Source: Pseudomonadota bacterium
GTDB taxonomy: Bacteria; Pseudomonadota; Alphaproteobacteria; Rhodospirillales; 2-02-FULL-58-16
Reading direction: 5' to 3'
DNA: 44,102 nucleotides
NCBI GenBank assembly: GCA_022560215.1
Contig: JADFTO010000001.1
Location: forward strand, 1-44,102
Below, piece after piece: positions 22,835 to 37,264 of this stretch (position 1 is its first letter; each line of letters starts with the position of its first letter). A program made the position numbers and the translations under genes. Under the pieces are notes generated by a model. It searched no databases. It worked only from the letters and a program-made list of their open reading frames with translations, and was not told the origin of the DNA.

Positions 22835-24340
22835 GTGATCAGGGAGCTTAAACATTTCATCGGCGGCAAGCCGGTCAAGGGCGAGAGCGGCCGCTTCGCA
22901 GACGTCTACGATCCGGCCACCGGCCAGGTGACGGCGAAGGTGCCCCTGGCCGGCCCCGGCGAGGTGGGCCGCGCGGTCTCCGCCGCGGCCGCCGCCCTGC
23001 CCGGGTGGATGGCGACGCCGCCCGCGAAACGGGTCCAGGTCCTGTTCCGCTTCCGGGACCTGATCCTCGAGCACCTGGACGACCTGGCTGCTACCCTGGC
23101 CTCGGAACACGGCAAGACCCTGGATGACGCCAAGGGCTCGATCAGGCGCGGCGTGGAGGTGGTGGAATTCGTCTGCGGCATCCCGCATCTGCTGAAGGGC
23201 GAATACTCCGAAGGCGTGGCCTCCGGCGTGGACGTCTTCGCGCTCCGCCAGCCCGTCGGCGTGTGCGTCGGCATCACGCCCTTCAACTTCCCCGCCATGG
23301 TGCCCATGTGGATGTTTCCGGTGGCCATCGCGTGCGGCAACACCTTCATCCTCAAGCCCTCGGAAAAGGACCCCTCGACGGGCTTCAGGCTGGCCGAGTT
23401 GATGTCCGAGGCGGGCCTGCCCTCGGGCGTCCTCAACGTGATTAACGGCGACAAGGAGGCCGTGGACGCCCTGCTCGCCGATCCCACCGTCGCCGCGGTC
23501 AGCTTCGTCGGCTCCACCGCCGTCGGCGAATACATCTACGCCACCGGCTGCGCCAACGGAAAGCGCGTGCAAGCCCTTTGCGGGGCCAAGAACCACATGG
23601 TGGTGATGCCCGACGCCGACATGGACCAGGCCCTGGACGCGGCCATGGGCGCGGCCTACGGCTCCGCCGGGGAGCGTTGCATGGCCATTTCGGTGGCCGT
23701 CACCGTGGGCGAGGAGACCGGCGACGAGTTCGTCCGCCGACTGGCGCCGCGGGTGCGCGCGCTCAAGGTCGGGCCCTACGTGGACCCCCAATCCGAGATG
23801 GGGCCGGTGATCACCGCCGAGGCCAAGGAGCGCATTCTCGGCTACATCGACAAGGGCATCGAGGAAGGCGCGGACCTGGTGGTCGACGGCCGGGGACTCA
23901 GCCTCCAGGGGTACGAGGACGGCTATTTCATCGGCGGCTGCCTGTTCGACCGCGTCACCCCTTCCATGAGCATCTACAGCGACGAGATCTTCGGGCCCGT
24001 GCTGTCGGTGGTCCGGGCCAAGGACTACGAAGAGGCCCTGGGGCTGGTCAACGACCACCCGTACGGCAACGGCGCCGCCATCTTCACCCGCGACGGGGAC
24101 GCCGCGCGCAACTTCGTCAACCGGGCGAAGATCGGCATGGTCGGGGTCAACGTGCCGATCCCGGTGCCCGTCGCCTATTACAGCTTCGGGGGGTGGAAAA
24201 GCTCGCTCTTCGGCGACCACCACATCCACGGCCCCGAGGGGGTGCGCTTCTACACCCGGCAGAAGACGGTGACGGCGCGCTGGCCGTCGGGCATCCGCGA
24301 GGGCGCCCAGTTCCACTTCCGCGGCGGCGCCGAGACCTAG
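22835..24340 (+). CDS. mmsA: Methylmalonate-semialdehyde dehydrogenase (CoA-acylating)
   Basis: 501 aa, GTG start, HFIGGK N-terminus, aldehyde dehydrogenase motifs (FNFPAMVPMWMF, GERCMA catalytic Cys) and the MmsA/IolA-typical C-terminal tail TARWPSG. Confidence 0.9.
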   Translation: MIRELKHFIGGKPVKGESGRFADVYDPATGQVTAKVPLAGPGEVGRAVSAAAAALPGWMATPPAKRVQVLFRFRDLILEHLDDLAATLASEHGKTLDDAKGSIRRGVEVVEFVCGIPHLLKGEYSEGVASGVDVFALRQPVGVCVGITPFNFPAMVPMWMFPVAIACGNTFILKPSEKDPSTGFRLAELMSEAGLPSGVLNVINGDKEAVDALLADPTVAAVSFVGSTAVGEYIYATGCANGKRVQALCGAKNHMVVMPDADMDQALDAAMGAAYGSAGERCMAISVAVTVGEETGDEFVRRLAPRVRALKVGPYVDPQSEMGPVITAEAKERILGYIDKGIEEGADLVVDGRGLSLQGYEDGYFIGGCLFDRVTPSMSIYSDEIFGPVLSVVRAKDYEEALGLVNDHPYGNGAAIFTRDGDAARNFVNRAKIGMVGVNVPIPVPVAYYSFGGWKSSLFGDHHIHGPEGVRFYTRQKTVTARWPSGIREGAQFHFRGGAET

Positions 24341-24347
24341 GCCGCGA
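24266..24347 (+). repeat. Direct repeat copy A (last ~24 codons of mmsA plus 7 nt)
   Basis: 24276-24347 is identical (72/72) to 30047-30118. Similarity extends imperfectly, with 2 mismatches, to 24266/30037. Offset is 5771 nt. Confidence 0.9.
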
Positions 24348-24377
24348 ACCGCCTGGCGGAGACGCCGGTATTGGAGC

Positions 24378-24691
24378 TCAGTTCTTCACGATATCGTTGA
24401 TCCAGGACATGGTTGACATGGCGGTCGGGAATCCCAGCGTCGTGATTGCCAGGACGGCGACTTGCCGGAGCTCCCCGGGCGCCAAGCACTCCTCCATGGC
24501 CTGGCGGGTGTGGGAATGAACGGCCCCTTCCGAATCGGCGCCGCTGGAAAGGGCCAGTTTGATCAGCCTGCGCGTGCGCCCATCCAGCGGACTCGATTTC
24601 CCGGCGGCCGCGCCGAGGGCTTCGTACGCCTCCCACACCTCGGGGAACTCCTGGGCGAAGATGCCGGCTCCTGAAGGGGCAATGTCGTCAT
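24378..24691 (-). pseudogene. Carboxymuconolactone decarboxylase (CMD/AhpD-like) family gene with an apparent 1-nt frameshift near its start
   Basis: The family-like frame (..PSGAGIFAQEFPEVWEAYEALGAAAG..ITTLGFP..) has no canonical start before GTG 24638. An ATG at 24691 overlaps the TorD stop (ATGA) but is in another frame. Adding one C to the CCCC run (24676-24679) gives MTTLPPSGAGIFAQEFPEVW. Confidence 0.6.
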
Positions 24692-25383
24692 ATTTCTCTC
24701 CTTTTAAGATTCTCGCTTTCCCGGCTGTCGATTGTATTCGCCCGTTCGGATTCGATGAAATCCTTCGTCAGGGCCGCCATGCCCCTGTAGAACGTCAGTT
24801 CCGCGCGATCGATCACCAGATCGCAGAACTTGGGAATCCAGAGGGAGAGGTGGCTGGCGACGAATTCGGATCCGACCGCCCTTAATTGTCCGGCCTCTGC
24901 CGGGTCTCGCTTTTCGAGCGCGGCCGCTTCCCTGGCGGTGATTTCCCGCATGAACTCGAGCTCGGCGCTGATATGGTCGGGAAGGTCGTGATAGTCGGGC
25001 CGGTATTCGAACCCCGCGGCCTCGATGTATTTCTTGACCCAGACCGTCGGCCGCCCCCAGAGCAACGCCCCCTCGCCGCCTAGATGGACAGCGGCATAGG
25101 GCGGAACATGATTGCCGGGCCCGATGAACAAACGCGTATACTCGACGGCCAGGAGCTCGATCAGCTCGTCTTCGGCGTGATCGGCGAAGGAGGTTCCTAA
25201 ATCAACCCCAGTGTCGGCTAGCAAGTCCAGTGAATCAGGGTCCCTGATCCAGCGTAACAGCTCGGCCGTCGGCTCGGTCCGGTAGACCGCGGCCAGAAAG
25301 CCATAGAGGCTGCTGCACTCCATGGCCGTTCCGGCCGGGCCGTTTGTGTCGACTATGAGACCGCCACCGGCCTCATCCCTCAT
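24688..25383 (-). CDS. TorD/DmsD-family redox-enzyme maturation chaperone
   Basis: 231 aa with the EYTRLFIGPG motif and the DHISAELEFM region typical of TorD-like chaperones. The ATG overlaps the catalytic subunit stop (ATGA). Confidence 0.8.
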   Translation of the reverse strand: MRDEAGGGLIVDTNGPAGTAMECSSLYGFLAAVYRTEPTAELLRWIRDPDSLDLLADTGVDLGTSFADHAEDELIELLAVEYTRLFIGPGNHVPPYAAVHLGGEGALLWGRPTVWVKKYIEAAGFEYRPDYHDLPDHISAELEFMREITAREAAALEKRDPAEAGQLRAVGSEFVASHLSLWIPKFCDLVIDRAELTFYRGMAALTKDFIESERANTIDSRESENLKRREI

Positions 25384-27920
25384 GCGATAGCTACTTTAGA
25401 AACCGAGACCACGGTATCCATGAACCGCAGCTGCCCGTTGATGGGATCGGGCGCGTTGGCGATGATCCAGTTGGGGTGGACGCCGTTGTCCTTCCACCAC
25501 TTGCGCTTCAGCTCCGGATCGTCGTCCGTGCCCAGTGGCGCCTTCTTGCCCGAGGCGTACCGGCCGTACTCCCAGTGCCCGCAGTGATGGGAGATGGCGA
25601 TGACGCCGGGCACCACGGCGGGCGTTACCCTTGCCCTGGTCTCGATCTCGCCGATCGGGGACTTGACCTTGATGGCGTCGCCGTCGCTGATCCCCCTGGC
25701 CGCCGCGGTGACCGGGTTAATCCAGCCCGGGTTCTCGTAGTAGATCTCGGTCAGCCACTTGCAGTTCTGGCTGCGCGAGTGGATCTGGACGGCGACCTTG
25801 TAGGTGGTGAGGATCAGCTCGCCGGGCTTCATGGCCTCGTGCTCGGGAATCGGCATATAGGTGGGCAAAGGGGCGAAGCCCTTGTCCTCCATGATGGTTG
25901 AGTAAAATTCCATATACCCCGACTTGTTCAGCTTGTCGGGTTTGAAGCCGATGAAGACCTCGCCGCCGATCTTTTGTGCGACGTAGCCCTTGTAGGCGTT
26001 CTTGGTGTGGGCGTAGCCCTTCTCGCGGGCTTCTTCCTCGCTCTTGGCCTTGGTCTTCTTCCAGTTCCAGTAGACGTCCGTCGCCTCGTCGAGGATGACT
26101 CCGTCGGCGTCGAGCTTTTTGGCGTTCACCCTCTTACTATACGAATAGAACTTGGGCTTGGCCTTGGGATCGTGCCAGACGCCGTGCTCCTTCATGTACT
26201 CGAAGCCGCCGGCCTCCTTGACACCCGGGGTCATCTCGCAGGACAGCCTGACGAACTCCTCCTTGCTCTTGAAGCCGAGCGGGAAACCCATCCTCTCGGC
26301 CAGATCGCAGCAGACGTCGCCGAAGTCCCGGGCCTCGCCGAGGGGCTTGACCACGGGCTGGCGGATATAGAACTCGGGGATCTGCCTGGGCGACACCATG
26401 TCCTCCCAGTCCCAGCGCTCCAGGTAGGTGGCGTCGGGAAGGATGAGGTCGGCGAGCGCCGCCGATTCGTCGTAGAAGGGATTGACGCAGACCGTAAAGG
26501 GGATCAGCGACTCGTCCTTGAGGATGTCGATGTTCTCCTGCACCTCGCCGTTGGCGTAGACGGGGGTGTAGCAGTACCACATGTAGACCTCGGGCCGGCC
26601 GGCCTTGCCGTCCTTGATCATCTTCAGCACGCGGTGGCTCACGTGGTGGGTGGGCAGGGCGGCGTCGCCCTTGAAGCCGTCGAGGATTTCCAGCTTCTTG
26701 CCCTTGGGCTTGTTCTTCGGTCCCTTGGGGTACTTCCACTTGGCGCCGACCGCCTTGCAGCGGCCGCCGGGGTTGTCGACGTTGCCGGTGATGGCCGCCA
26801 GCATCTGGATGGCGCGTTCCGTGTCGTTGCCGTTGTAATGGGCGACGGCGCCGCGGTAGCTGATCACGCAGGCCGGCTTGGTGGTGGCGAACTCCCTGGC
26901 CAGCGCCCTGATCTTGTCGGCGCCGACGCCGCTGATGTTCTCCGCCCACGCCGGGGTGTAGGAGGCCAGGTGCGCCTTCAGCGCGGCCACCTTGTCGGCG
27001 GGCGTGGCGTTGGGATCGTTGGTGAACTTGCAGAACTTCATGAACGCCTCGCCCTCGCCGCGGTAGAGGTCCTCGCTCATGATCACGTGGCACATGGCCA
27101 GCGCCACGGCGCCGTCGGTGCCCGGCTTGATGGGCACCCACTCGCTCGATTTGGCGGCGGTGTTGGACATCTTCACGTCGAAAGTGACCATCCTGACACT
27201 GCGGTCGACCAGGGCCCGCACCAGCCGGTGCGCCACCGGGACATGGTTGGTGTGGGCCTCCAGGCAGTTGCTGCCGAAGTTGAGCACGAACCGGGTGTTG
27301 TCGAAGTCCCAGTTGTCGAAGTGCGACCCCCAGGTCAGCTCCTGGGCGGTCCACTTGCCGCCCTCGCAGATGCTGGTGTGGTTGCCGATGGTGTTGGTCC
27401 CGTAGGTGGCGAGGAAGACGCTCTTGATGAGCTTCGAGGAGCTCGCCTTCATGCGCCCGTAATGGAACATGAACTTCTCGGGCTGGCCCTCGTCCCGGAG
27501 CTTCTTGAGCCTGCCCGCGACCTCGGTCAGGGCCTCGTCCCAGGTGATCCGCTTCCACTTCCCTTCGCCACGCTTGCCGACGCGCCGGAGCGGATAGAGG
27601 ATGCGGTCGGGATCGTAGACCTGGTTGACGCCGGCCTGGCCCTTGGCGCACATCTTGCCCTCGGTCCTGATGGAGTCGGGCTGGCCGCCCATCTTGACGA
27701 GCCGGCCGTCCTCGACGTAACCGATCGCCGCGCAACGGGTCACGCACTGCCAGCAGGCGGTGGGGATGCCGGCGCGCTCCTTTCCGGTCTTCGGAGAGAA
27801 GTCCTTGCCGCCCTTGATCGGAAGGTCCTTGGCGCGGGTGAGCGCCCCGGCGCCGGCGAGGGCCGCCGAGGCGGCTGCCGTTGCCGCGCCGAGCTTGAGG
27901 AAATTACGACGGGAAACCAT
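25380..27920 (-). CDS. Molybdopterin (bis-MGD) oxidoreductase catalytic subunit, Psr/Phs/Ttr/Arr-like, Tat-exported (846 aa)
   Basis: Start placed at MVSRRNFLKLGAATAAASAALAGAGA (twin-arginine signal, GAGGAGG RBS). N-terminal FeS motif CWQCVTRCAAIG...CAKG. NHTSICEGG is a candidate Mo-ligand Cys region. Substrate not assignable from sequence. Confidence 0.85.
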   Translation of the reverse strand: MVSRRNFLKLGAATAAASAALAGAGALTRAKDLPIKGGKDFSPKTGKERAGIPTACWQCVTRCAAIGYVEDGRLVKMGGQPDSIRTEGKMCAKGQAGVNQVYDPDRILYPLRRVGKRGEGKWKRITWDEALTEVAGRLKKLRDEGQPEKFMFHYGRMKASSSKLIKSVFLATYGTNTIGNHTSICEGGKWTAQELTWGSHFDNWDFDNTRFVLNFGSNCLEAHTNHVPVAHRLVRALVDRSVRMVTFDVKMSNTAAKSSEWVPIKPGTDGAVALAMCHVIMSEDLYRGEGEAFMKFCKFTNDPNATPADKVAALKAHLASYTPAWAENISGVGADKIRALAREFATTKPACVISYRGAVAHYNGNDTERAIQMLAAITGNVDNPGGRCKAVGAKWKYPKGPKNKPKGKKLEILDGFKGDAALPTHHVSHRVLKMIKDGKAGRPEVYMWYCYTPVYANGEVQENIDILKDESLIPFTVCVNPFYDESAALADLILPDATYLERWDWEDMVSPRQIPEFYIRQPVVKPLGEARDFGDVCCDLAERMGFPLGFKSKEEFVRLSCEMTPGVKEAGGFEYMKEHGVWHDPKAKPKFYSYSKRVNAKKLDADGVILDEATDVYWNWKKTKAKSEEEAREKGYAHTKNAYKGYVAQKIGGEVFIGFKPDKLNKSGYMEFYSTIMEDKGFAPLPTYMPIPEHEAMKPGELILTTYKVAVQIHSRSQNCKWLTEIYYENPGWINPVTAAARGISDGDAIKVKSPIGEIETRARVTPAVVPGVIAISHHCGHWEYGRYASGKKAPLGTDDDPELKRKWWKDNGVHPNWIIANAPDPINGQLRFMDTVVSVSKVAIA

Positions 27921-27930
27921 TTGATCCTCC

Positions 27931-28899
27931 TCAGATTCCAACCGGTCCGGTGATCTGACCGGCGACCACCACCACGTAGCGAAGCATGAACCCACCGGCC
28001 AGGATGGCCGTCGGCACGATGATCTCCATGCTCCGCGGTGCTTTGAATTCCTTTTGGTAAAGCAGCTTGGGAATGATGTAGTAGAGTTCCACCAGCGCCG
28101 GGAACAGAAGGCCGACGGCGATGAACCAGAACCAGAACTCAGTCATCAAGCTGCCGCCCGGCAGGATCACCGAGACGGCTTCCTTGACGCTGCCGATGGT
28201 CAGGTACGCATATATGATGAACAGGAAGACGACCACCAGCTCGAAGCCGATCAGCAGCAAATCGGACGCCGTCAGCAGATAACCGCTGTGGTGATGCTGC
28301 GCCCGGGCTTCCGGCGTGTCCTCCGCCACGCGGCCGTGGATGGCCCGCACCAACAGGATCAAGGCGATGCCGGTGGAGAGCGCCGAAACCAGGAACAGGA
28401 GCGCCAGGATGGGCGAGTTCCAGAACGGCCTCGACGGCATGGCGCCCAACAGGATGCCCGTATAAACGGCGGTCGCGATTCCCAGTGGGATGGCGATCCA
28501 GCACATCAGCCGCCGCAACGCATAGCGCCGCTCAATCGGCAGCCCCGGCGCGTTTTGGACAAAAGTGTAGGCATATAGCAGGCTGACGCCGATGAACCCC
28601 GTCAGCAGCCAAGTGCCGATGGACATGGGCGACAGGTTGATGGTCATGTAGAGGTTGATCCATCTGAACCAGTTCCCGGCCTCGAAGGACCCGAGTTCGA
28701 GGATCAGCAGTCCGCAGCCAATCATCAGCGGAAGCGGCGCCACGAAGGCACCGTAGCGGGCCACTTCCACGTGCATGCCGCGGGCGGAATCGCCGCCGCG
28801 CAGGAAGATGGAGGCGCTGACCGTGAGCGCTCCGGCGCCGACGCCGGCCAGAAACAGGTACCCGATGACGGGCATGCCCCAGTTGAGTTCCGCGGTCAT
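27931..28899 (-). CDS. NrfD/PsrC-type integral membrane quinol-interacting subunit (322 aa)
   Basis: Start placed at MTAELNWGMPVIGYLFLAGVGAG (AGGAGG RBS, 2 nt after the FeS-subunit stop). Polytopic hydrophobic protein with an NrfD-like N-terminal motif. Confidence 0.8.
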   Translation of the reverse strand: MTAELNWGMPVIGYLFLAGVGAGALTVSASIFLRGGDSARGMHVEVARYGAFVAPLPLMIGCGLLILELGSFEAGNWFRWINLYMTINLSPMSIGTWLLTGFIGVSLLYAYTFVQNAPGLPIERRYALRRLMCWIAIPLGIATAVYTGILLGAMPSRPFWNSPILALLFLVSALSTGIALILLVRAIHGRVAEDTPEARAQHHHSGYLLTASDLLLIGFELVVVFLFIIYAYLTIGSVKEAVSVILPGGSLMTEFWFWFIAVGLLFPALVELYYIIPKLLYQKEFKAPRSMEIIVPTAILAGGFMLRYVVVVAGQITGPVGI

Positions 28900-28901
28900 G
28901 G

Positions 28902-29657
28902 CTACCTCCTTTCCAGTTGACGCCGGTGCGTATCGATCCGGACGTACTTGCCGTTCTTCTTGGCGTAATGCGGATCGGTGTGGTCCGCGGCGATGTAATA
29001 GACGTTGGGTTCCGTCCCCATCTCCTCGCGGAGAACGGTGACCGGGTTCATGGCGATCATCCTCGAAATCTCGCTGTCCGGATCGTTGAGGTCGCCGAAG
29101 ATGCGCGCCCGGCCGGTGCAGGTCTCCACGCACGCCGGTTCCAGACCCTGGGAAACCCGGTGCAGACAGAAGTCGCACTTGTCAGCGGAGCCAGTGACGG
29201 GGTTGAGGAAGCGGGCGTCGTAGGGGCAGGCCAGGATGCAGTACTTGCAGCCGATGCAGATGTCCGGATCGATGACGACGATGCCGTCTTCCTCGCGCTT
29301 CCAGGTCGCGTTCGTGGGACAGACCGTGACGCACTGCGGTTCCGAACAATGAAAGCACAGCCTCGGCAGGTAGCTAAGCGAGACGTGCGGGTAATCGCCT
29401 TTCTCTATGTACTCGACCCAGGACCGGGTCTCGCCGAGGGGAACGTCGAACTCAGCCTTGCATGAGACGCTGCACGCATGGCAGCCAATACATTTTCGCA
29501 GGTCTACCAGCATGCCGTACTGGGTCTTGCGCTTGGTTTTGGCGGCGCGGGCGGCTTTGGGAAAGGCGGTCGCCACGGCGCCGGCGGTGACAGCGGCGGC
29601 TGACTGTTTGAGGAACTTTCTGCGGGGAATGGCCGATTTCAGAGGAATGTCACTCAC
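28902..29657 (-). CDS. 4x[4Fe-4S] ferredoxin-type electron-transfer subunit with its own Tat signal
   Basis: IPRRKFLKQSAAAVTAGAVATAFPKAARA, followed by CIGCHACSVSC, CFHCSEPQCVTVCP, CIGCKYCILACP and CDFC cluster motifs. GTG 29657 is preferred (AGGAG 6 nt upstream) over the TTG 29675 of the ORF track. Confidence 0.8.
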   Translation of the reverse strand: MSDIPLKSAIPRRKFLKQSAAAVTAGAVATAFPKAARAAKTKRKTQYGMLVDLRKCIGCHACSVSCKAEFDVPLGETRSWVEYIEKGDYPHVSLSYLPRLCFHCSEPQCVTVCPTNATWKREEDGIVVIDPDICIGCKYCILACPYDARFLNPVTGSADKCDFCLHRVSQGLEPACVETCTGRARIFGDLNDPDSEISRMIAMNPVTVLREEMGTEPNVYYIAADHTDPHYAKKNGKYVRIDTHRRQLERR

Positions 29658-29683
29658 AGCGGTCTCCTGTGCCAAGGGGACAT

Positions 29684-29732
29684 TGGGGCAATTATATTTA
29701 AAGGGGGATCGGCACTCTTTGATCTAAATCAA
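29684..29732 (-). promoter_or_regulatory. Class II FNR/CRP-family-dependent promoter of the molybdoenzyme operon
   Basis: Perfect TTGAT-CTAA-ATCAA (29719-29732) and a perfect TATAAT on the minus strand (29696-29691). The predicted +1 at ~29684 puts the box centre at -41.5. The resulting leader is ~27 nt to the GTG. Confidence 0.7.
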
Positions 29733-29934
29733 ATCTAAATCAAAGATAGGTATAGTCGGGTCCGGATTATTCATAATACAGGCCAAGTATCCGACCGATT
29801 CACGATTGGCCCAGAAGGTGCGTGGCAATCGGCCGGTTCCCATGAAACCGTTTCTCACGCGGCAGGCGGCTTGGTGGAAATTTCTGGCGGGCCCAGGCGC
29901 GGGGTCGCGCGCCTTCCGGGAGCCCCCATGCCCG

Positions 29935-30032
29935 CCTACCACTTCCGGCACTTGGCCTGGATGGCGCGGTAGCTGGTCACCGAGTCGATCTCGGCGTTGG
30001 CCAGTTCGGCGGCGGTCTCCATTTTCTTCACC
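29935..30032 (-). repeat. Repeat copy X': detached copy of the 3' end of the DUF922 gene
   Basis: 93/98 identical to 31124-31221. Encodes ..KKMETAAELANAEIDSVTSYRAIQAKCRKW* against the resident ..IDTVTSYRAIHAKCRKW*. Two of the five differences are synonymous third-position changes. Confidence 0.9.
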
Positions 30033-30036
30033 CGCC

Positions 30037-30118
30037 ACGGGGACGCCGCGCTGGCCGTCGGGCATCCGCGAGGGCGCCCAGTTCCACTTCCGCGGCGGCG
30101 CCGAGACCTAGGCCGCGA
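30037..30118 (+). repeat. Repeat copy A': detached copy of the 3' end of mmsA
   Basis: 30047-30118 is identical to 24276-24347, including the TAG stop and 7 nt beyond. It abuts X' back-to-back, with only ~4 nt (30033-30036) between them. Confidence 0.9.
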
Positions 30119-30235
30119 GGGGGCGGTGGAAGGCAAGGTCCCACCAATCCTCCATGGAACCCACGCTATCCCCCCGGAAAAGACGGGATTCCATGGCCCC
30201 GGGCGTGGCCTCATTTGACGCCATTTCCATCCGCA

Positions 30236-31014
30236 CTACCGTGATTCGACATGGTACATGACGTTTCGATCCTCCCAGCTCACCTTTTCCAGGTCCTCGA
30301 ACCGTTCTTCGATATTCCTCCTGAAGGCATTGCATGAGGCGTCGAATTCATCCCGGGCATAGAGCGAGAAGGTCGAATAGTGCTTTGCATGAACCCGATC
30401 CATCAGACACCTCAACGAAGCAGAGCGCTTGAAAAGGAACGTCTTGGCCTCGATCAGCCCGAGTCCTTCCGCCGAGTCGATGAAGTCGCGCATGGTTTTC
30501 TCCGCATACAGACGCGTTTCAATTTCGTTGAAGCGGGGAAAATATCGTCCCCAGATCGTTAGGGCGTTCTGTTCGGGCGTTCGCGAGTAAACGAACAGGC
30601 GGCCGCCCGGGCCGCCTTCGACAGGAAAACATGCAAGTCGAAGTGGTGCACCGAGTTGAAACTGAACATCGCCTGCAAGGAGTTCTCCCCCAGGTCCAGG
30701 TCTTCGATCGCGGACAGCCTGGTTTCGAATCCGTTGATCCCTTCGCCGGTCAAGCGACTCCCGAGCTGGGCCAGCATGCCTTCGTTGGCATCAACGCAAA
30801 TGAGATGGAGACCCGGCAGGTGGCGGAACAGCAGCCGATCGTAGCGCCCCTCGCCGCAACCCACGTCGGCGGCGAGAAGCGATTGGCGCCCCTGAAGGGC
30901 GTCGCGGATGTAGAGGATGGGATCCTCGTCCGTCGTCCTCACGGTCCCATACGCGTCGGCCAGTTTGGAGAAATGGCCGCGCTAGGACGAATTTGCAGTT
31001 TCCTCCGAGATCAT
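30236..31014 (-). pseudogene. Class I SAM-dependent methyltransferase pseudogene (in-frame TAG plus frameshift)
   Basis: ATG 31014, MISEETANSS, then TAG (30984-30982), then RGHFSKLADAYGTVRTTDEDP...VGCGEGRY (motif I)...FSFNSVHHF. The frame is then lost in a G/C run (~30597-30608). The continuation PGGRLFVYSRTPEQN...MRDFIDSAEGLG...MYHVESR* is in another frame, ending at 30236. Confidence 0.75.
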
Positions 31015-31124
31015 AAGCCCCCCCTCTCGGTTGAATGCCGAATTCGGACCCGGCCGAGGCGCGGCAGCCGAGATCGTTTATTGGCTACGCGTGACGGGGA
31101 ACCGCGCTCTCCCCTCCACTTATC

Positions 31125-31826
31125 CTACCACTTCCGGCACTTGGCGTGAATGGCGCGGTAGCTGGTGACGGTGTCGATCTCGGCGTTGGCCAGTTCGGCG
31201 GCGGTCTCCATTTTCTTCACCAGCGGCCGGAGCTTCCCCATCAACAGCTTCTTCACCCGCTCCGCCGCCCGCTCCCGGGAGCCGACGGTGACGGGGCGAA
31301 GGCGCCGCACCTCGAGGGCCAGGCGTTCCTCGATCCAGGGCGCGTAGCGCCTGAGCGTGTCGCGGTAGACGGCCACGTGCTCCTCTTCGTGGTCCAGGAT
31401 GGCGCGGTAGGCGCAGCCCCCCCGGCGGTACTTGCGGTCGATGTAGATGACGAAGGTCGTGAACCCGGCCGTCACCTCCACCTTTACCGGCGCGGCGCAG
31501 AAGCGGTTGGCGGAAACGGGGACCACGCGCACGCCGAGCCGCATGTCGATGCGCAGTTCGGCCTGGGTCAGGCCGAGGGGATACCAGCCCCGCTTGCTCC
31601 CCTTGCCGCCGTGGCGTTCCTGGATGCGCTTGAGGTCGCTGCGGGTATGGCCGGCGCGGTGAACCACCTTGCCGGGATCGCTGTTCAGGACCACGGTGGC
31701 TCTAACGCCGTCGCAGGGGCCGGCGCCGAGAACGGGAAGGGGAAAGGCGGAGAACGCCGCCGCCCATGCGAGGGCCGCCGCCAACGGCAGCCGTGCCGCC
31801 GTCAGCGGGGCTTCCGGGGTTTCCAT
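31125..31826 (-). CDS. DUF922-family predicted secreted Zn-metallopeptidase
   Basis: Signal-like N-terminus (LPLAAALAWAAAFSAFPLPVLG) and HEEEH (HExxH) in ILDHEEEHVAVY. The ATG 31826 start overlaps the upstream Sel1 gene by 25 nt. The upstream part of the 271-aa ORF is not protein-like. Confidence 0.65.
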   Translation of the reverse strand: METPEAPLTAARLPLAAALAWAAAFSAFPLPVLGAGPCDGVRATVVLNSDPGKVVHRAGHTRSDLKRIQERHGGKGSKRGWYPLGLTQAELRIDMRLGVRVVPVSANRFCAAPVKVEVTAGFTTFVIYIDRKYRRGGCAYRAILDHEEEHVAVYRDTLRRYAPWIEERLALEVRRLRPVTVGSRERAAERVKKLLMGKLRPLVKKMETAAELANAEIDTVTSYRAIHAKCRKW

Positions 31827-32623
31827 TCCTTGGCCAGGCGCTCCGCCTCGGCGACCTGGTCGGCGCTCAGAGTCTTGGCCAGGGCCTTGCGGTTGTCGAT
31901 GGCCTGGGTATGGTTCCGGGCCGCCGCCAGGGTCAGCCACATGAGGGCCCTGACCTCGTCCTTGGGCGTGCCAACGCCCCGCGCCAGGCGGACGCCGATG
32001 TGGTTCTGGGCCTTGGCGTAGCCCTGTTCGGCGGCGGCCAGGAACCAGCGGGCGGCGGCTTCCGCGTCCTCGGGCGTGCCGTCACCGTCGCGGTAGAACT
32101 TGCCCAGGTTGTACTGGGCCTTGTCGAAGCCGGCCTCGGCCGCCTTCTTGATCCAGGTGAAGGCGCGCTCGAAGTCCTTGGATACGCCATAGCCATAGTG
32201 GAACATCTTGCCCAAGGTGTACTGGGAACGGATGAGCCCTTGGCCCGCCGCCTTTTCCAGCCAGGCCACCGCCTTGTCGTAATCCTGCTCGACCCCTTTC
32301 CCCGCGATATAGGCCTGGGCCAGACTATGCTGGGCCTGGACATCGCCCTGATCGGCGGCCCTGGTCCACCAGCGGATGGCCTCGGCCGTGTCCTGGGCCA
32401 CGCCCCGTTCTTCGTCGTACATGATGCCGAGGTTGAACTGGGAGCGGGCGTCGCCGCCGTCCGCCAGGGGCCGCCACTCCTTGAGGGCGGTGGCGAAATC
32501 GCCCTCCTGGTAGGCCCGCCATCCGTCTTGGAAGTCGGCGGCGGCCGGCAGGGCCAGCGTCCCGGCGAGGACGGCCCAGGCGACAGCCTTGATCAAGGCG
32601 CCCGGCGTCAATAGCTTTCGCAT
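31802..32623 (-). CDS. Sel1-like repeat (SLR/TPR-family) secreted protein
   Basis: Signal peptide MRKLLTPGALIKAVAWAVLAGTLALPAAA, then ~6 Sel1 repeats (A..W...AA.QG...AQ..LG..Y..G.GV..D). Alternative starts at 32641 or 32650. Confidence 0.8.
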   Translation of the reverse strand: MRKLLTPGALIKAVAWAVLAGTLALPAAADFQDGWRAYQEGDFATALKEWRPLADGGDARSQFNLGIMYDEERGVAQDTAEAIRWWTRAADQGDVQAQHSLAQAYIAGKGVEQDYDKAVAWLEKAAGQGLIRSQYTLGKMFHYGYGVSKDFERAFTWIKKAAEAGFDKAQYNLGKFYRDGDGTPEDAEAAARWFLAAAEQGYAKAQNHIGVRLARGVGTPKDEVRALMWLTLAAARNHTQAIDNRKALAKTLSADQVAEAERLAKEWKPRKPR

Positions 32624-33379: not shown

Positions 33380-33646
33380 AGAGCGGGTCAGGATTGATAG
33401 GAACCATTTGACCGGGATTATTTTGTCCCGTGGCTAGGCACGCTCCGAAAGGCGATGCTTGCGCATCGGATGAGGGGCGTAACGACGCCACGGGGCAAAA
33501 GAACCCGGCCTCCGGTGGGGCAGATCGGTCCCCCGGGTGCGTTGCAACGCTTGCCCGATGCTGCGGCATCGCGCGGCGCGCCGCGCCTGCCCGAATGAAC
33601 CGATCTGCTCCCATCAAATTGATTCCTATCAATCCTGAACCGCTCT
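33380..33646 (+). mobile_element. 267-bp MITE, copy 1
   Basis: Terminal inverted repeats AGAGCGGGTCAGGATTGATAGGAA and TTCCTATCAATCCTGAACCGCTCT (23/24). Internally rich in hairpins and has no credible ORF. Identical (267/267 by eye) to 36998-37264. Confidence 0.85.
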
Positions 33647-36997: not shown

Positions 36998-37264
36998 AGA
37001 GCGGGTCAGGATTGATAGGAACCATTTGACCGGGATTATTTTGTCCCGTGGCTAGGCACGCTCCGAAAGGCGATGCTTGCGCATCGGATGAGGGGCGTAA
37101 CGACGCCACGGGGCAAAAGAACCCGGCCTCCGGTGGGGCAGATCGGTCCCCCGGGTGCGTTGCAACGCTTGCCCGATGCTGCGGCATCGCGCGGCGCGCC
37201 GCGCCTGCCCGAATGAACCGATCTGCTCCCATCAAATTGATTCCTATCAATCCTGAACCGCTCT
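36998..37264 (+). mobile_element. 267-bp MITE, copy 2
   Basis: Identical to copy 1 and in the same orientation. Sits 28 nt after the aminotransferase stop and 97 nt upstream of the adenylate cyclase start. Confidence 0.85.

Follow-up and report, generated by a model that had tools for sequence, protein, structure and literature searches.

A tandem of two alternative cargoes between mmsA and an orphan gene, probably formed by one homologous and one illegitimate exchange

The stretch of DNA analysed here (the window) is an entire contig of 44,102 nt (JADFTO010000001.1) from a metagenome-assembled genome (MAG), with annotated proteins MCH7485375-78. A molybdoenzyme operon and a decayed methyltransferase gene lie in it one after the other, between mmsA and a convergent gene that we call X, and short copies of the 3' ends of both flanking genes (A' and X') meet between the two cargoes. 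We consider it likely that two alternative alleles of one mmsA/X slot recombined to give this structure, through one homologous and one illegitimate exchange. Ca. 25 relative contigs were compared with the window; where they have to be told apart, they are referred to by labels such as L001 or L066.

On the plus strand, sequence reading and a scan of open reading frames (ORFs) gave the order mmsA, a minus-strand operon of five genes, X', A', a methyltransferase pseudogene and gene X; with the domain scans, this agrees with the order claimed in an earlier, sequence-only reading of the same DNA. mmsA (22835-24340, plus strand) is full length and codes for a CoA-acylating methylmalonate-semialdehyde dehydrogenase of 501 aa (TIGR01722, 706.2 bits versus a cut-off of 448.5; Pfam Aldedh) that is syntenic with its counterparts in L001-L003. 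A repeat search over 22-33 kb matched 24266-24347 to 30037-30118 at 80 of 82 positions, the final 72 nt being identical. These 72 nt are repeat A (24276-24347, plus strand), which consists of the final 65 nt of mmsA and a 7-nt trailer and whose right end is the left edge of the operon insertion, and A' (30047-30118, plus strand), a second, non-functional copy of the same mmsA 3' end and trailer. The same search matched 31124-31224 to 29935-30035 at 94%. The truly homologous part is 98 nt long and 93/98 identical, with X' (29935-30032, minus strand) a copy of the stop codon and last 31 codons of X, and repeat X (31124-31221, minus strand) the 3' end of the intact gene. Both duplications had been pointed out before, and the search recovered them with the same extent and identity. 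They are the two longest direct repeats within 22-33 kb, far above chance. Between A' and the pseudogene lies the native mmsA-X intergenic spacer of the window's lineage (30119-30227, 109 nt), which is homologous to the spacer of L003 (30024-30227 aligns to that region at 72.7%) and follows a full-length mmsA in L050. We refer to the tandem arrangement, i.e., mmsA with A, operon and X', followed by filler, A', native spacer, methyltransferase pseudogene and X, as type T, and to an operon-only allele, which lacks the junction and the pseudogene, as type D.

The junction between X' and A' recurs outside the window. Three further contigs, L051 (ERZ23499613, covering window positions 31178-29653 at 98.6% identity), L052 (ERZ27267417, 31222-29870, 99.8%) and L054 (ERZ24945578, 30914-29862, 98.3%), each connect the pseudogene with the operon promoter by way of the spacer, A' and X', with L051 and L052 extending to the 3' end of X as well. 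The junction sequence ...CATTTTCTTCACCCGCCACGGGGACGCCGCGCTGGCC... is identical in all four assemblies, in strains up to 1.7% apart; the tandem arrangement is inherited. The boundary between mmsA and the operon (24347/24348) was likewise found in L046 (99.5%) and L047 (99.9%). Since the same junction is present in three other assemblies, an assembly artefact is excluded, and the doubt that the sequence-only reading had left on this point is answered in favour of a genuine junction. An artefact, in which an assembler would have stitched two strain alleles of the slot in tandem, was worth considering for a contig assembled from a metagenome, with single-cargo alleles co-occurring in related samples and short-read contigs that break at or within repeats. 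It is barely credible when X', filler and A' are joined identically in a SPIRE scaffold, a MEGAHIT k141 contig and a SPAdes NODE, i.e., by different assemblers, one of the sequences being 1.7% diverged, and when X and mmsA share just 8 nt at the junction, well under any assembler k-mer. In addition, X' of L051, L052 and L054 has gained a TGG>TGA change of its own, as expected of a dead fragment.

The joint itself retains traces of how it was made. X', which reaches 98 nt in from the stop codon of X, ends in the 8-nt sequence TCTTCACC, and the same 8 nt occur inside mmsA (positions 31214-31221 in X, 30025-30032 in X' and 24081-24088 in mmsA). The likeness to mmsA continues beyond X': positions 30025-30051 (TCTTCACCCGCCACGGGGACGCCGCGC) match the mmsA-internal segment 24081-24107 (plus strand) at 26 of 27 positions, the sole match in the window when 3 mismatches are allowed, with 0.00 expected. 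What follows X' is a 19-nt filler, CGCCACGGGGACGCCGCGC (30033-30051, plus strand), the last 5 nt of which, CGCGC, overlap the start of A'. Its only other match in the window at no more than 2 mismatches is its template, mmsA 24089-24107 (1 mismatch, at 30036; 0.02 expected), and it is the same in L051, L052 and L054. The mismatch, a C at 30036, is private to the filler, which has the same states as mmsA of the window at three positions variable among the seven alleles compared (24100, 24103 and 24106). After the filler, the mmsA sequence skips 173 nt, from 24107 to 24281, over an imperfect 15-nt repeat (ACGGGGACGCCGCGC versus ACGGTGACGGCGCGC, 13/15, with CGCGC in common). The sequence-only reading had placed the junction at 30033-30036 and had taken two mismatches at the left end of A' for a crossover zone. 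Neither point stands, because the actual joint is the 19-nt filler, matched at mmsA 24089-24107, and the two mismatches belong to it. The left 15 nt of A' were also considered as a diverged allele of mmsA 24266-24280; this was excluded, since all seven mmsA alleles compared are conserved there, reading ACGGT[G/A]ACGGCGCGC, and 24081-24107 provides the 26/27 match. The joint bears the signature of illegitimate, microhomology-mediated joining.

A novel joint inside two coding sequences, at a microhomology, is unlike the products of site-specific systems, and it bears on the idea that the operon is a mobile element (an island, a transposon or an integron-like cassette) moved into place by a site-specific recombinase or a transposase whose gene lies elsewhere in the genome. 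Such an idea would suit a slot that holds different cargoes in different relatives and a genome that harbours an active-looking miniature inverted-repeat transposable element (MITE), with two identical 267-nt copies at 33380 and 36998. We regard it as very unlikely, given that no terminal inverted repeats, target-site duplication or att-like repeats are present at 24347/24348 or 29934/29935, and that the repeats bracketing the insert are the ends of the neighbouring genes themselves. No recombinase domain was found with Pfam and NCBIfam among the ten ORFs scanned at the locus (22835-31940), in line with the earlier statement that a recombinase gene is absent, and tRNA detection found no tRNA in the whole window. 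No Rfam family reached its threshold within 22-33 kb; the one match with E <= 0.1, to the eukaryotic apoB element RF00463 inside the NrfD gene, was taken as chance (36.8 bits versus a gathering score of 55). The MITE was considered as the vehicle of the operon and rejected, its terminal repeats being missing from the operon boundaries.

The MITE-like element occupies 33380-33646 and 36998-37264, its 267-nt copies being 100% identical, with terminal inverted repeats of ca. 31 nt (AGAGCGG[G/T]TCAGGATTGATAGGAA...). Both copies lie in intergenic regions where L001-L003 do not align with the window, and two short-read contigs, L062 and L064, end in the element. Two further matches to the FNR box, TTGATTCCTATCAA, fall in its right terminal repeat.

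Between the convergent genes mmsA and X, this group of (probably alpha-)proteobacteria has a variable slot, which in relatives is either empty or filled with the methyltransferase or the molybdoenzyme operon. It is empty in L001, L002, L003 and L008 (the last a contig of only 1.5 kb), where mmsA and X are convergent neighbours 33-236 bp apart and X shares 83-93% identity with gene X of the window. In L001-L003, collinearity with the window extends for 10-20 kb on each side, the sole large difference being 24341-31123. The empty state is predicted to be the ancestral one. The methyltransferase alone was found in several contexts. L066 has a normal mmsA 3' end, a 41-nt spacer and an intact methyltransferase of 253 aa, and ends within 10 nt of X; in L048 and L049 the X 3' end stands beside an intact methyltransferase of 239 aa; and in L050, which belongs to a second MAG, the window's spacer and pseudogene come after a full-length mmsA, at 98.9% identity. 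From the contexts in L050, L066, L048, L049 and L003 it follows that A', the spacer, the pseudogene and X of the window are in their native context, and the methyltransferase-only allele would predate type T.

The operon alone is found in 11 contigs, L004 and L056-L065 (the latter from eight Logan runs and two ENA assemblies), in which a full-length X abuts the operon exactly at the boundary of X', with ...CATGCCCGC on one side and CTACC... on the other. Both single-cargo alleles had been predicted from the window, and both exist, the methyltransferase-only form with an intact gene in L066, L048 and L049 and with the same pseudogene in L050. The proposal would have fallen had neither cargo been seen by itself in any genome; the opposite was found. 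Type T and type D alleles were recovered from the same sample, ERZ27267417 (L052 and L062). Searches elsewhere gave little. Among GTDB representative genomes, X peptide patterns revealed no relative, and a 21-mer invariant in all X copies gave 36 matches, none similar to the window, the genus having no representative there; in JGI metagenomes, the junction sequence had 0 matches, and a degenerate X 3'-end motif recovered only contig L005/L045.

Other DNA was also seen around the slot. In L005 (4875-5960; also L006, L007 and L045, with X 84% identical), the DNA downstream of X resembles neither the operon nor the methyltransferase nor mmsA and holds no convincing ORF; it may be a further slot variant. 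The mmsA-X spacer of L002 (10679-10913) contains four tandem copies of a ca. 60-nt repeat, GCAAATCCCGAGCGGATCAACGATCCGCGACGACGCATTT..., of which L001 (10697-10770) has a single copy. A small, hairpin-rich dispersed element, GTTTCCACTTCAGTGGAAACATGCGATAAGCCGGCG..., absent from the window, lies downstream of the intact methyltransferase in L048 (1260-1398) and, in reversed orientation, directly upstream of X in L002 (9928-10007) and L008 (97-183).

The sequence of X' indicates where the operon-bearing allele came from. X' and X differ at 5 of 98 nt, the differences being T>S, H>Q and two synonymous changes, which reproduces the kinds of substitution listed before. The X genes of type T and type D strains differ by 0.3-0.5% (Poisson P ca. 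2e-4 for the five differences). All five variant states of X' (C, G, C, C and A at 29957, 29960, 29978, 29981 and 29983) are those of the relative L008, and three of them also occur in L048. Since every state is found in L008, X' is a genuine allele from another lineage and not a product of decay, and the view of X' as a diverged donor allele, put forward in the sequence-only reading, gains support from all five sites. The operon-only contigs show what became of this segment. L056-L065 have X-type states at five of five sites, while L004 is a hybrid, X'-type at sites 1-2 and X-type at sites 3-5, with the switch between sites 13 nt apart; its mixed states place a crossover inside the 98-nt repeat. 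We considered whether L004 could be a k-mer chimera and rejected this, as 13 nt is too short a distance for an assembler to switch; the argument assumes a Logan assembly k-mer that we take to be about 31. An 11-nt duplication in the operon promoter, present in the window and in the type D contigs L056-L063 and L065, is not found in L051 and L004, and these promoter haplotypes agree with more than one passage from T to D. It looks as if exchange between X' and X turned type T into the operon-only alleles on two or more occasions, with different crossover points. The earlier suggestion that the operon could be lost by recombination between A and A' was not borne out: resolution in the population lies between X' and X, and it is the pseudogene side that is lost.

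The foreign states of X' also bear on the possibility that the structure began as a tandem duplication within one genome, from mmsA 24081 to position 98 of X, joined at TCTTCACC, with the cargo of one copy later exchanged for the other cargo by homologous recombination with another allele. RecA-independent duplications and template switching typically leave joints at a microhomology, with a templated filler; here, filler and A' agree with mmsA of the same genome, and allelic exchange through these flanks does occur, as the mosaic mmsA of L050 and the X hybrid of L004 attest. This course of events is nevertheless unlikely. It needs two independent rare events, the second of which must use the 98-nt X' or the 72-267-nt A' as one homology arm; an allele with two identical cargoes is absent among the ca. 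25 contigs; and the five foreign states of X' sit right beside the operon, as expected of a single joint arrival. The two units are also unequal, in contrast to a simple tandem duplication, since one holds the operon and the other the spacer and pseudogene, and X' and X differ at 5/98.

The recombination of two alleles that we favour may have proceeded as follows. DNA from an operon-bearing allele of another lineage, with an L008-like 3' end of X, would have met a chromosome carrying the methyltransferase allele. A first, homologous exchange would have taken place in a shared flank, most simply in mmsA, the final 72 nt of which are identical in both copies. A second, illegitimate exchange would have joined X, 98 nt from its stop codon, to the interior of mmsA at the 8-nt TCTTCACC. 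The joint would then have copied 19 nt from mmsA 24089-24107 before a 173-nt jump to 24281, by a second template switch or by a later slippage deletion, the latter being the same kind of event as the 13-nt loss in the methyltransferase gene. The operon would thereby have entered the species together with a foreign X 3' end, type T being the founding form. Type T would slowly be resolved by RecA-type recombination between short direct repeats: exchange between X' and X would remove the junction and the pseudogene and leave the operon-only type D allele, and exchange between A and A' would remove the operon. Both flanks offer room for homologous exchange, mmsA and X being 84-99% conserved among alleles, and exchange within each is seen in mosaic alleles (L050 in mmsA and L004 in X). 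A patch of the window's mmsA (23979-24244) differs from L050 at 11 positions, the adjoining 218 nt on one side and 103 nt on the other being identical, and several of its states occur in the window lineage only; it may be a conversion tract tied to the capture event.

Three routes would give the same product: a circle followed by Campbell-type integration, a linear fragment entering by homology-facilitated illegitimate recombination (HFIR), and an unequal exchange bridged by donor DNA. The first, which the sequence-only reading had proposed, is a sub-case of the allelic recombination favoured above. In it, the mmsA 3' part, the operon and the X 3' part would have been excised or taken up as one segment, closed into a circle at the X/mmsA joint and integrated by a Campbell-type single crossover in the mmsA 3' segment. 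The topology is exact, with 72-nt identical direct repeats flanking the insert and one closure joint inside; both parental allele types exist; and a microhomology joint is the expected trace of a linear fragment end-joined to a circle. There is, on the other side, no evidence of any circle, and the product can be obtained without one; the homology for the crossover is just 72 nt now and was at most 267 nt before the 173-nt loss; and the filler, which would have to stem from the donor, has the resident mmsA states at 24100, 24103 and 24106. We judge the circle possible, with the odds against it. Of the earlier proposal, the direct repeats, closure joint, homologous exchange and parental alleles thus hold, whereas the circular intermediate is not required, as linear DNA gives the same product. 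The agreement of the filler with resident mmsA mildly favours a resident origin of filler and A', and hence the linear route, 19 nt with one private mismatch not being decisive.

Several points weigh against the recombination of two alleles as set out here. Its direction follows by parsimony, both for the identity of the resident allele and for the derivation of D from T rather than T from D. A donor allele, with the operon beside a full-length X bearing the five X'-type states, was not found among the contigs, the donor lineage being indicated by the 98 nt of X' alone. Classical HFIR usually deletes recipient DNA, and here 72-267 nt are duplicated. Only the window links all parts: no type T short-read contig covers the full 7 kb, and no type D contig extends to mmsA. 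Ten of the 11 type D contigs are nearly identical and most come from one run series, so that they represent about one population. Finally, the best proxy for the recipient, L050 (GCA_022564275.1, contig JADFLT010000048.1), is not a clean ancestor. Its mmsA (797-2344) is a mosaic, with ca. 70% identity in the 5' third and 96-100% over the last 650 nt, and its upstream genes differ (a class III aminotransferase, alanine dehydrogenase and a thiamine pyrophosphate enzyme), which could be due to inter-lineage recombination in mmsA or to a chimeric contig.

The structure is a well-documented natural instance of known recombination processes, with no new mechanism or kind of system. When a non-replicating circle integrates by a Campbell-type single crossover, as in suicide-plasmid cointegrates, the homology segment is repeated on both sides, and the reverse crossover leads to precise loss. 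The topology of the window is identical, with an insert between direct repeats of the homology segment (A and A', 72/72) and a closure joint between X' and mmsA-derived sequence at 30032/30033, in four assemblies. The difference is that no circle, origin or vector is evident, and that the closure joint is a microhomology scar of two chromosomal genes. Junctions of the types attributed to microhomology-mediated break-induced replication (MMBIR) and fork stalling and template switching (FoSTeS), and RecA-independent duplications, likewise have a joint at a short microhomology. They also resemble the window in its templated insertion, taken from ca. 6 kb away in the present contig and within 200 nt of the joined segment, and in its second jump over an imperfect 15-nt repeat. 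They are unlike the window in that its two copies hold different cargoes and X alleles, for which a purely intragenomic duplication needs a further exchange.

As summarised in PMC6382021, HFIR during natural transformation of Acinetobacter baylyi, Streptococcus pneumoniae and Pseudomonas stutzeri produces joints at G+C-rich microhomologies of 3-10 bp (de Vries & Wackernagel 2002, Prudhomme et al. 2002 and Meier & Wackernagel 2003, cited there). The window likewise has one homologous anchor and one illegitimate joint at a short microhomology (8 bp here versus 3-10 bp), and the process works without a dedicated recombinase and accounts for the entry of a cargo between conserved flanking genes. 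The window is unlike HFIR in that its illegitimate joint lies inside the anchor gene, that recipient DNA is duplicated (72 nt now, at most 267 nt originally) and the recipient's own cargo kept, that the joint carries a 19-nt templated filler, and that it is a natural metagenome footprint and not an experiment. The recipient mmsA 3' end, spacer and pseudogene are all retained, where HFIR is marked by deleted or replaced recipient DNA. Transformation of S. pneumoniae also yields merodiploids holding both alleles (Johnston et al. 2013, PMC3784515). Like the window, these are tandems of a resident and an incoming cassette allele with direct-repeat borders, formed by unequal exchange and resolvable by recombination between the repeats; unlike it, they span 100-900 kb and arise through pre-existing repeats derived from insertion sequences, compared with ca. 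1-6 kb and a de novo 8-nt join here.

The first cargo is a 5.6-kb operon (24348-29934, minus strand; Pfam, NCBIfam and PDB matches, and gene calls from L046) for a molybdoenzyme that resembles Psr, Phs and Ttr. Its genes, all on the minus strand and assigned with Pfam and NCBIfam, encode, in the direction of transcription, a 4Fe-4S subunit (28902-29657), an NrfD-type membrane subunit (27931-28899), a molybdopterin subunit (25380-27920), a TorD/NarJ-like chaperone (24688-25323) and an AhpD/CMD-like protein (24378-24638) that is frameshifted near its ATG at 24682. The molybdopterin subunit reaches no equivalog cut-off in NCBIfam, and its best relatives in the PDB are the Thermus thiosulfate/polysulfide reductase 2vpw and ArrA; the enzyme is predicted to be of the Psr/Phs/Ttr/Arr type. 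The GC content of 24348-29934 is 62.7%, versus 66.6-67.2% in the flanks. A search of PLSDB plasmids with the operon returned distant matches only, at 65-72%, and thus no plasmid donor.

The promoter region of the operon (29658-29934, minus strand) belongs to the same cargo. It contains, upstream of the first gene, an exact FNR box, TTGATCTAAATCAA, at 29719-29732 (0.01 expected by chance), as had been claimed in attributing to the operon an FNR promoter of its own; no molybdenum cofactor riboswitch was found upstream of the operon with Rfam. The box overlaps the strain-polymorphic 11-nt tandem duplication mentioned above (ATCTAAATCAA, 29722-29732 and 29733-29743; 29719-29743 with the box), which is present in the window, L056-L063 and L065 and absent from L051 (type T) and L004 (type D), L064 stopping short of the region. 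The duplication may alter FNR-dependent control. Three short-read contigs, L046, L056 and L065, stop at it. The cargo is a Psr/Phs/Ttr-like reductase of anaerobic respiration with an FNR-box promoter, and is plausibly adaptive.

Two further features of the operon were seen. At 24638-24682, in the last operon gene (AhpD/CMD-like), one base is gone from a C-run just past codon 5, so that the ATG at 24682, with its good ribosome-binding site, does not share the frame of the domain. What remains is an 86-aa ORF from the GTG at 24638, homologues being ca. 104 aa long, and since L046 and L047 also have this 86-aa product among their gene calls, a sequencing error is not the cause. At 28497-29055, 13 clustered substitutions are private to the window when it is compared with L046 and with L057-L060 and L063, the five type D contigs that extend over this segment, the rest of the operon being ca. 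99.9% identical; the cluster looks like a short recombination tract.

The second cargo is a class I S-adenosylmethionine-dependent methyltransferase pseudogene (30236-30984, minus strand; Pfam Methyltransf_25/11; tblastn against the intact proteins P0261 and P0130; nucleotide comparison with L066 and L048). The description of this gene as decayed was upheld: relative to intact homologues, 13 nt are missing between two direct repeats of 9 nt, GGCCCGGGC, at ca. 30604-30616, and its start codon has changed from TTG to TAG at 30982-30984. The GC content of the pseudogene and its flanks (30228-31123) is 58.6%. An exact look-up of an 85-aa fragment of the pseudogene led to the junction-bearing contigs; the same look-up with ORFs spanning the X'/A' junction gave no match, as no gene is called across it. 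A chimeric ORF of 92 aa does run there (29936-30214, minus strand), antisense through the spacer and A' and closing with the final 31 codons of X'. The NCBI record annotates no gene over it, and its final TGG is TGA in L051, L052 and L054.

Gene X (31125-31826, minus strand; MCH7485378.1) is convergent with mmsA and codes for a protein of 233 aa with a signal-peptide-like N-terminus and an HEEEH motif. It had been labelled DUF922, a name that finds no support, since X has no match to a Pfam family even at E <= 10, nor any in NCBIfam. Its family is narrow and orphan: the search recovered nine homologous clusters, all without a Pfam domain.

The window offers a rare natural snapshot of the gain of an operon without mobile-element machinery in an uncultivated organism. 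The capture scar survives, in the form of the 8-nt microhomology, the templated filler and the duplicated gene ends, and empty, methyltransferase-only, operon-only and tandem alleles are all present in public metagenomes; with the scar and all four allele types visible, the order of events can be inferred. We suggest, quite tentatively and as a speculation, that the mmsA/X gap is a recombinase-free "cargo-swap" locus, at which a cargo would be captured through one-sided homology and a microhomology joint, pass through a tandem stage that retains old and new cargo alike, and be trimmed to a single-cargo allele by recombination between the repeats. If so, the tandem would be a standing polymorphism that lets the population segregate either cargo. 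The locus is also a system in which the resolution rate of short direct repeats (72 nt, and 98 nt at 95% identity) can be tested by polymerase chain reaction. Were capture followed by trimming general, such tandems, once resolved, would account for many "clean" island insertions between conserved genes.

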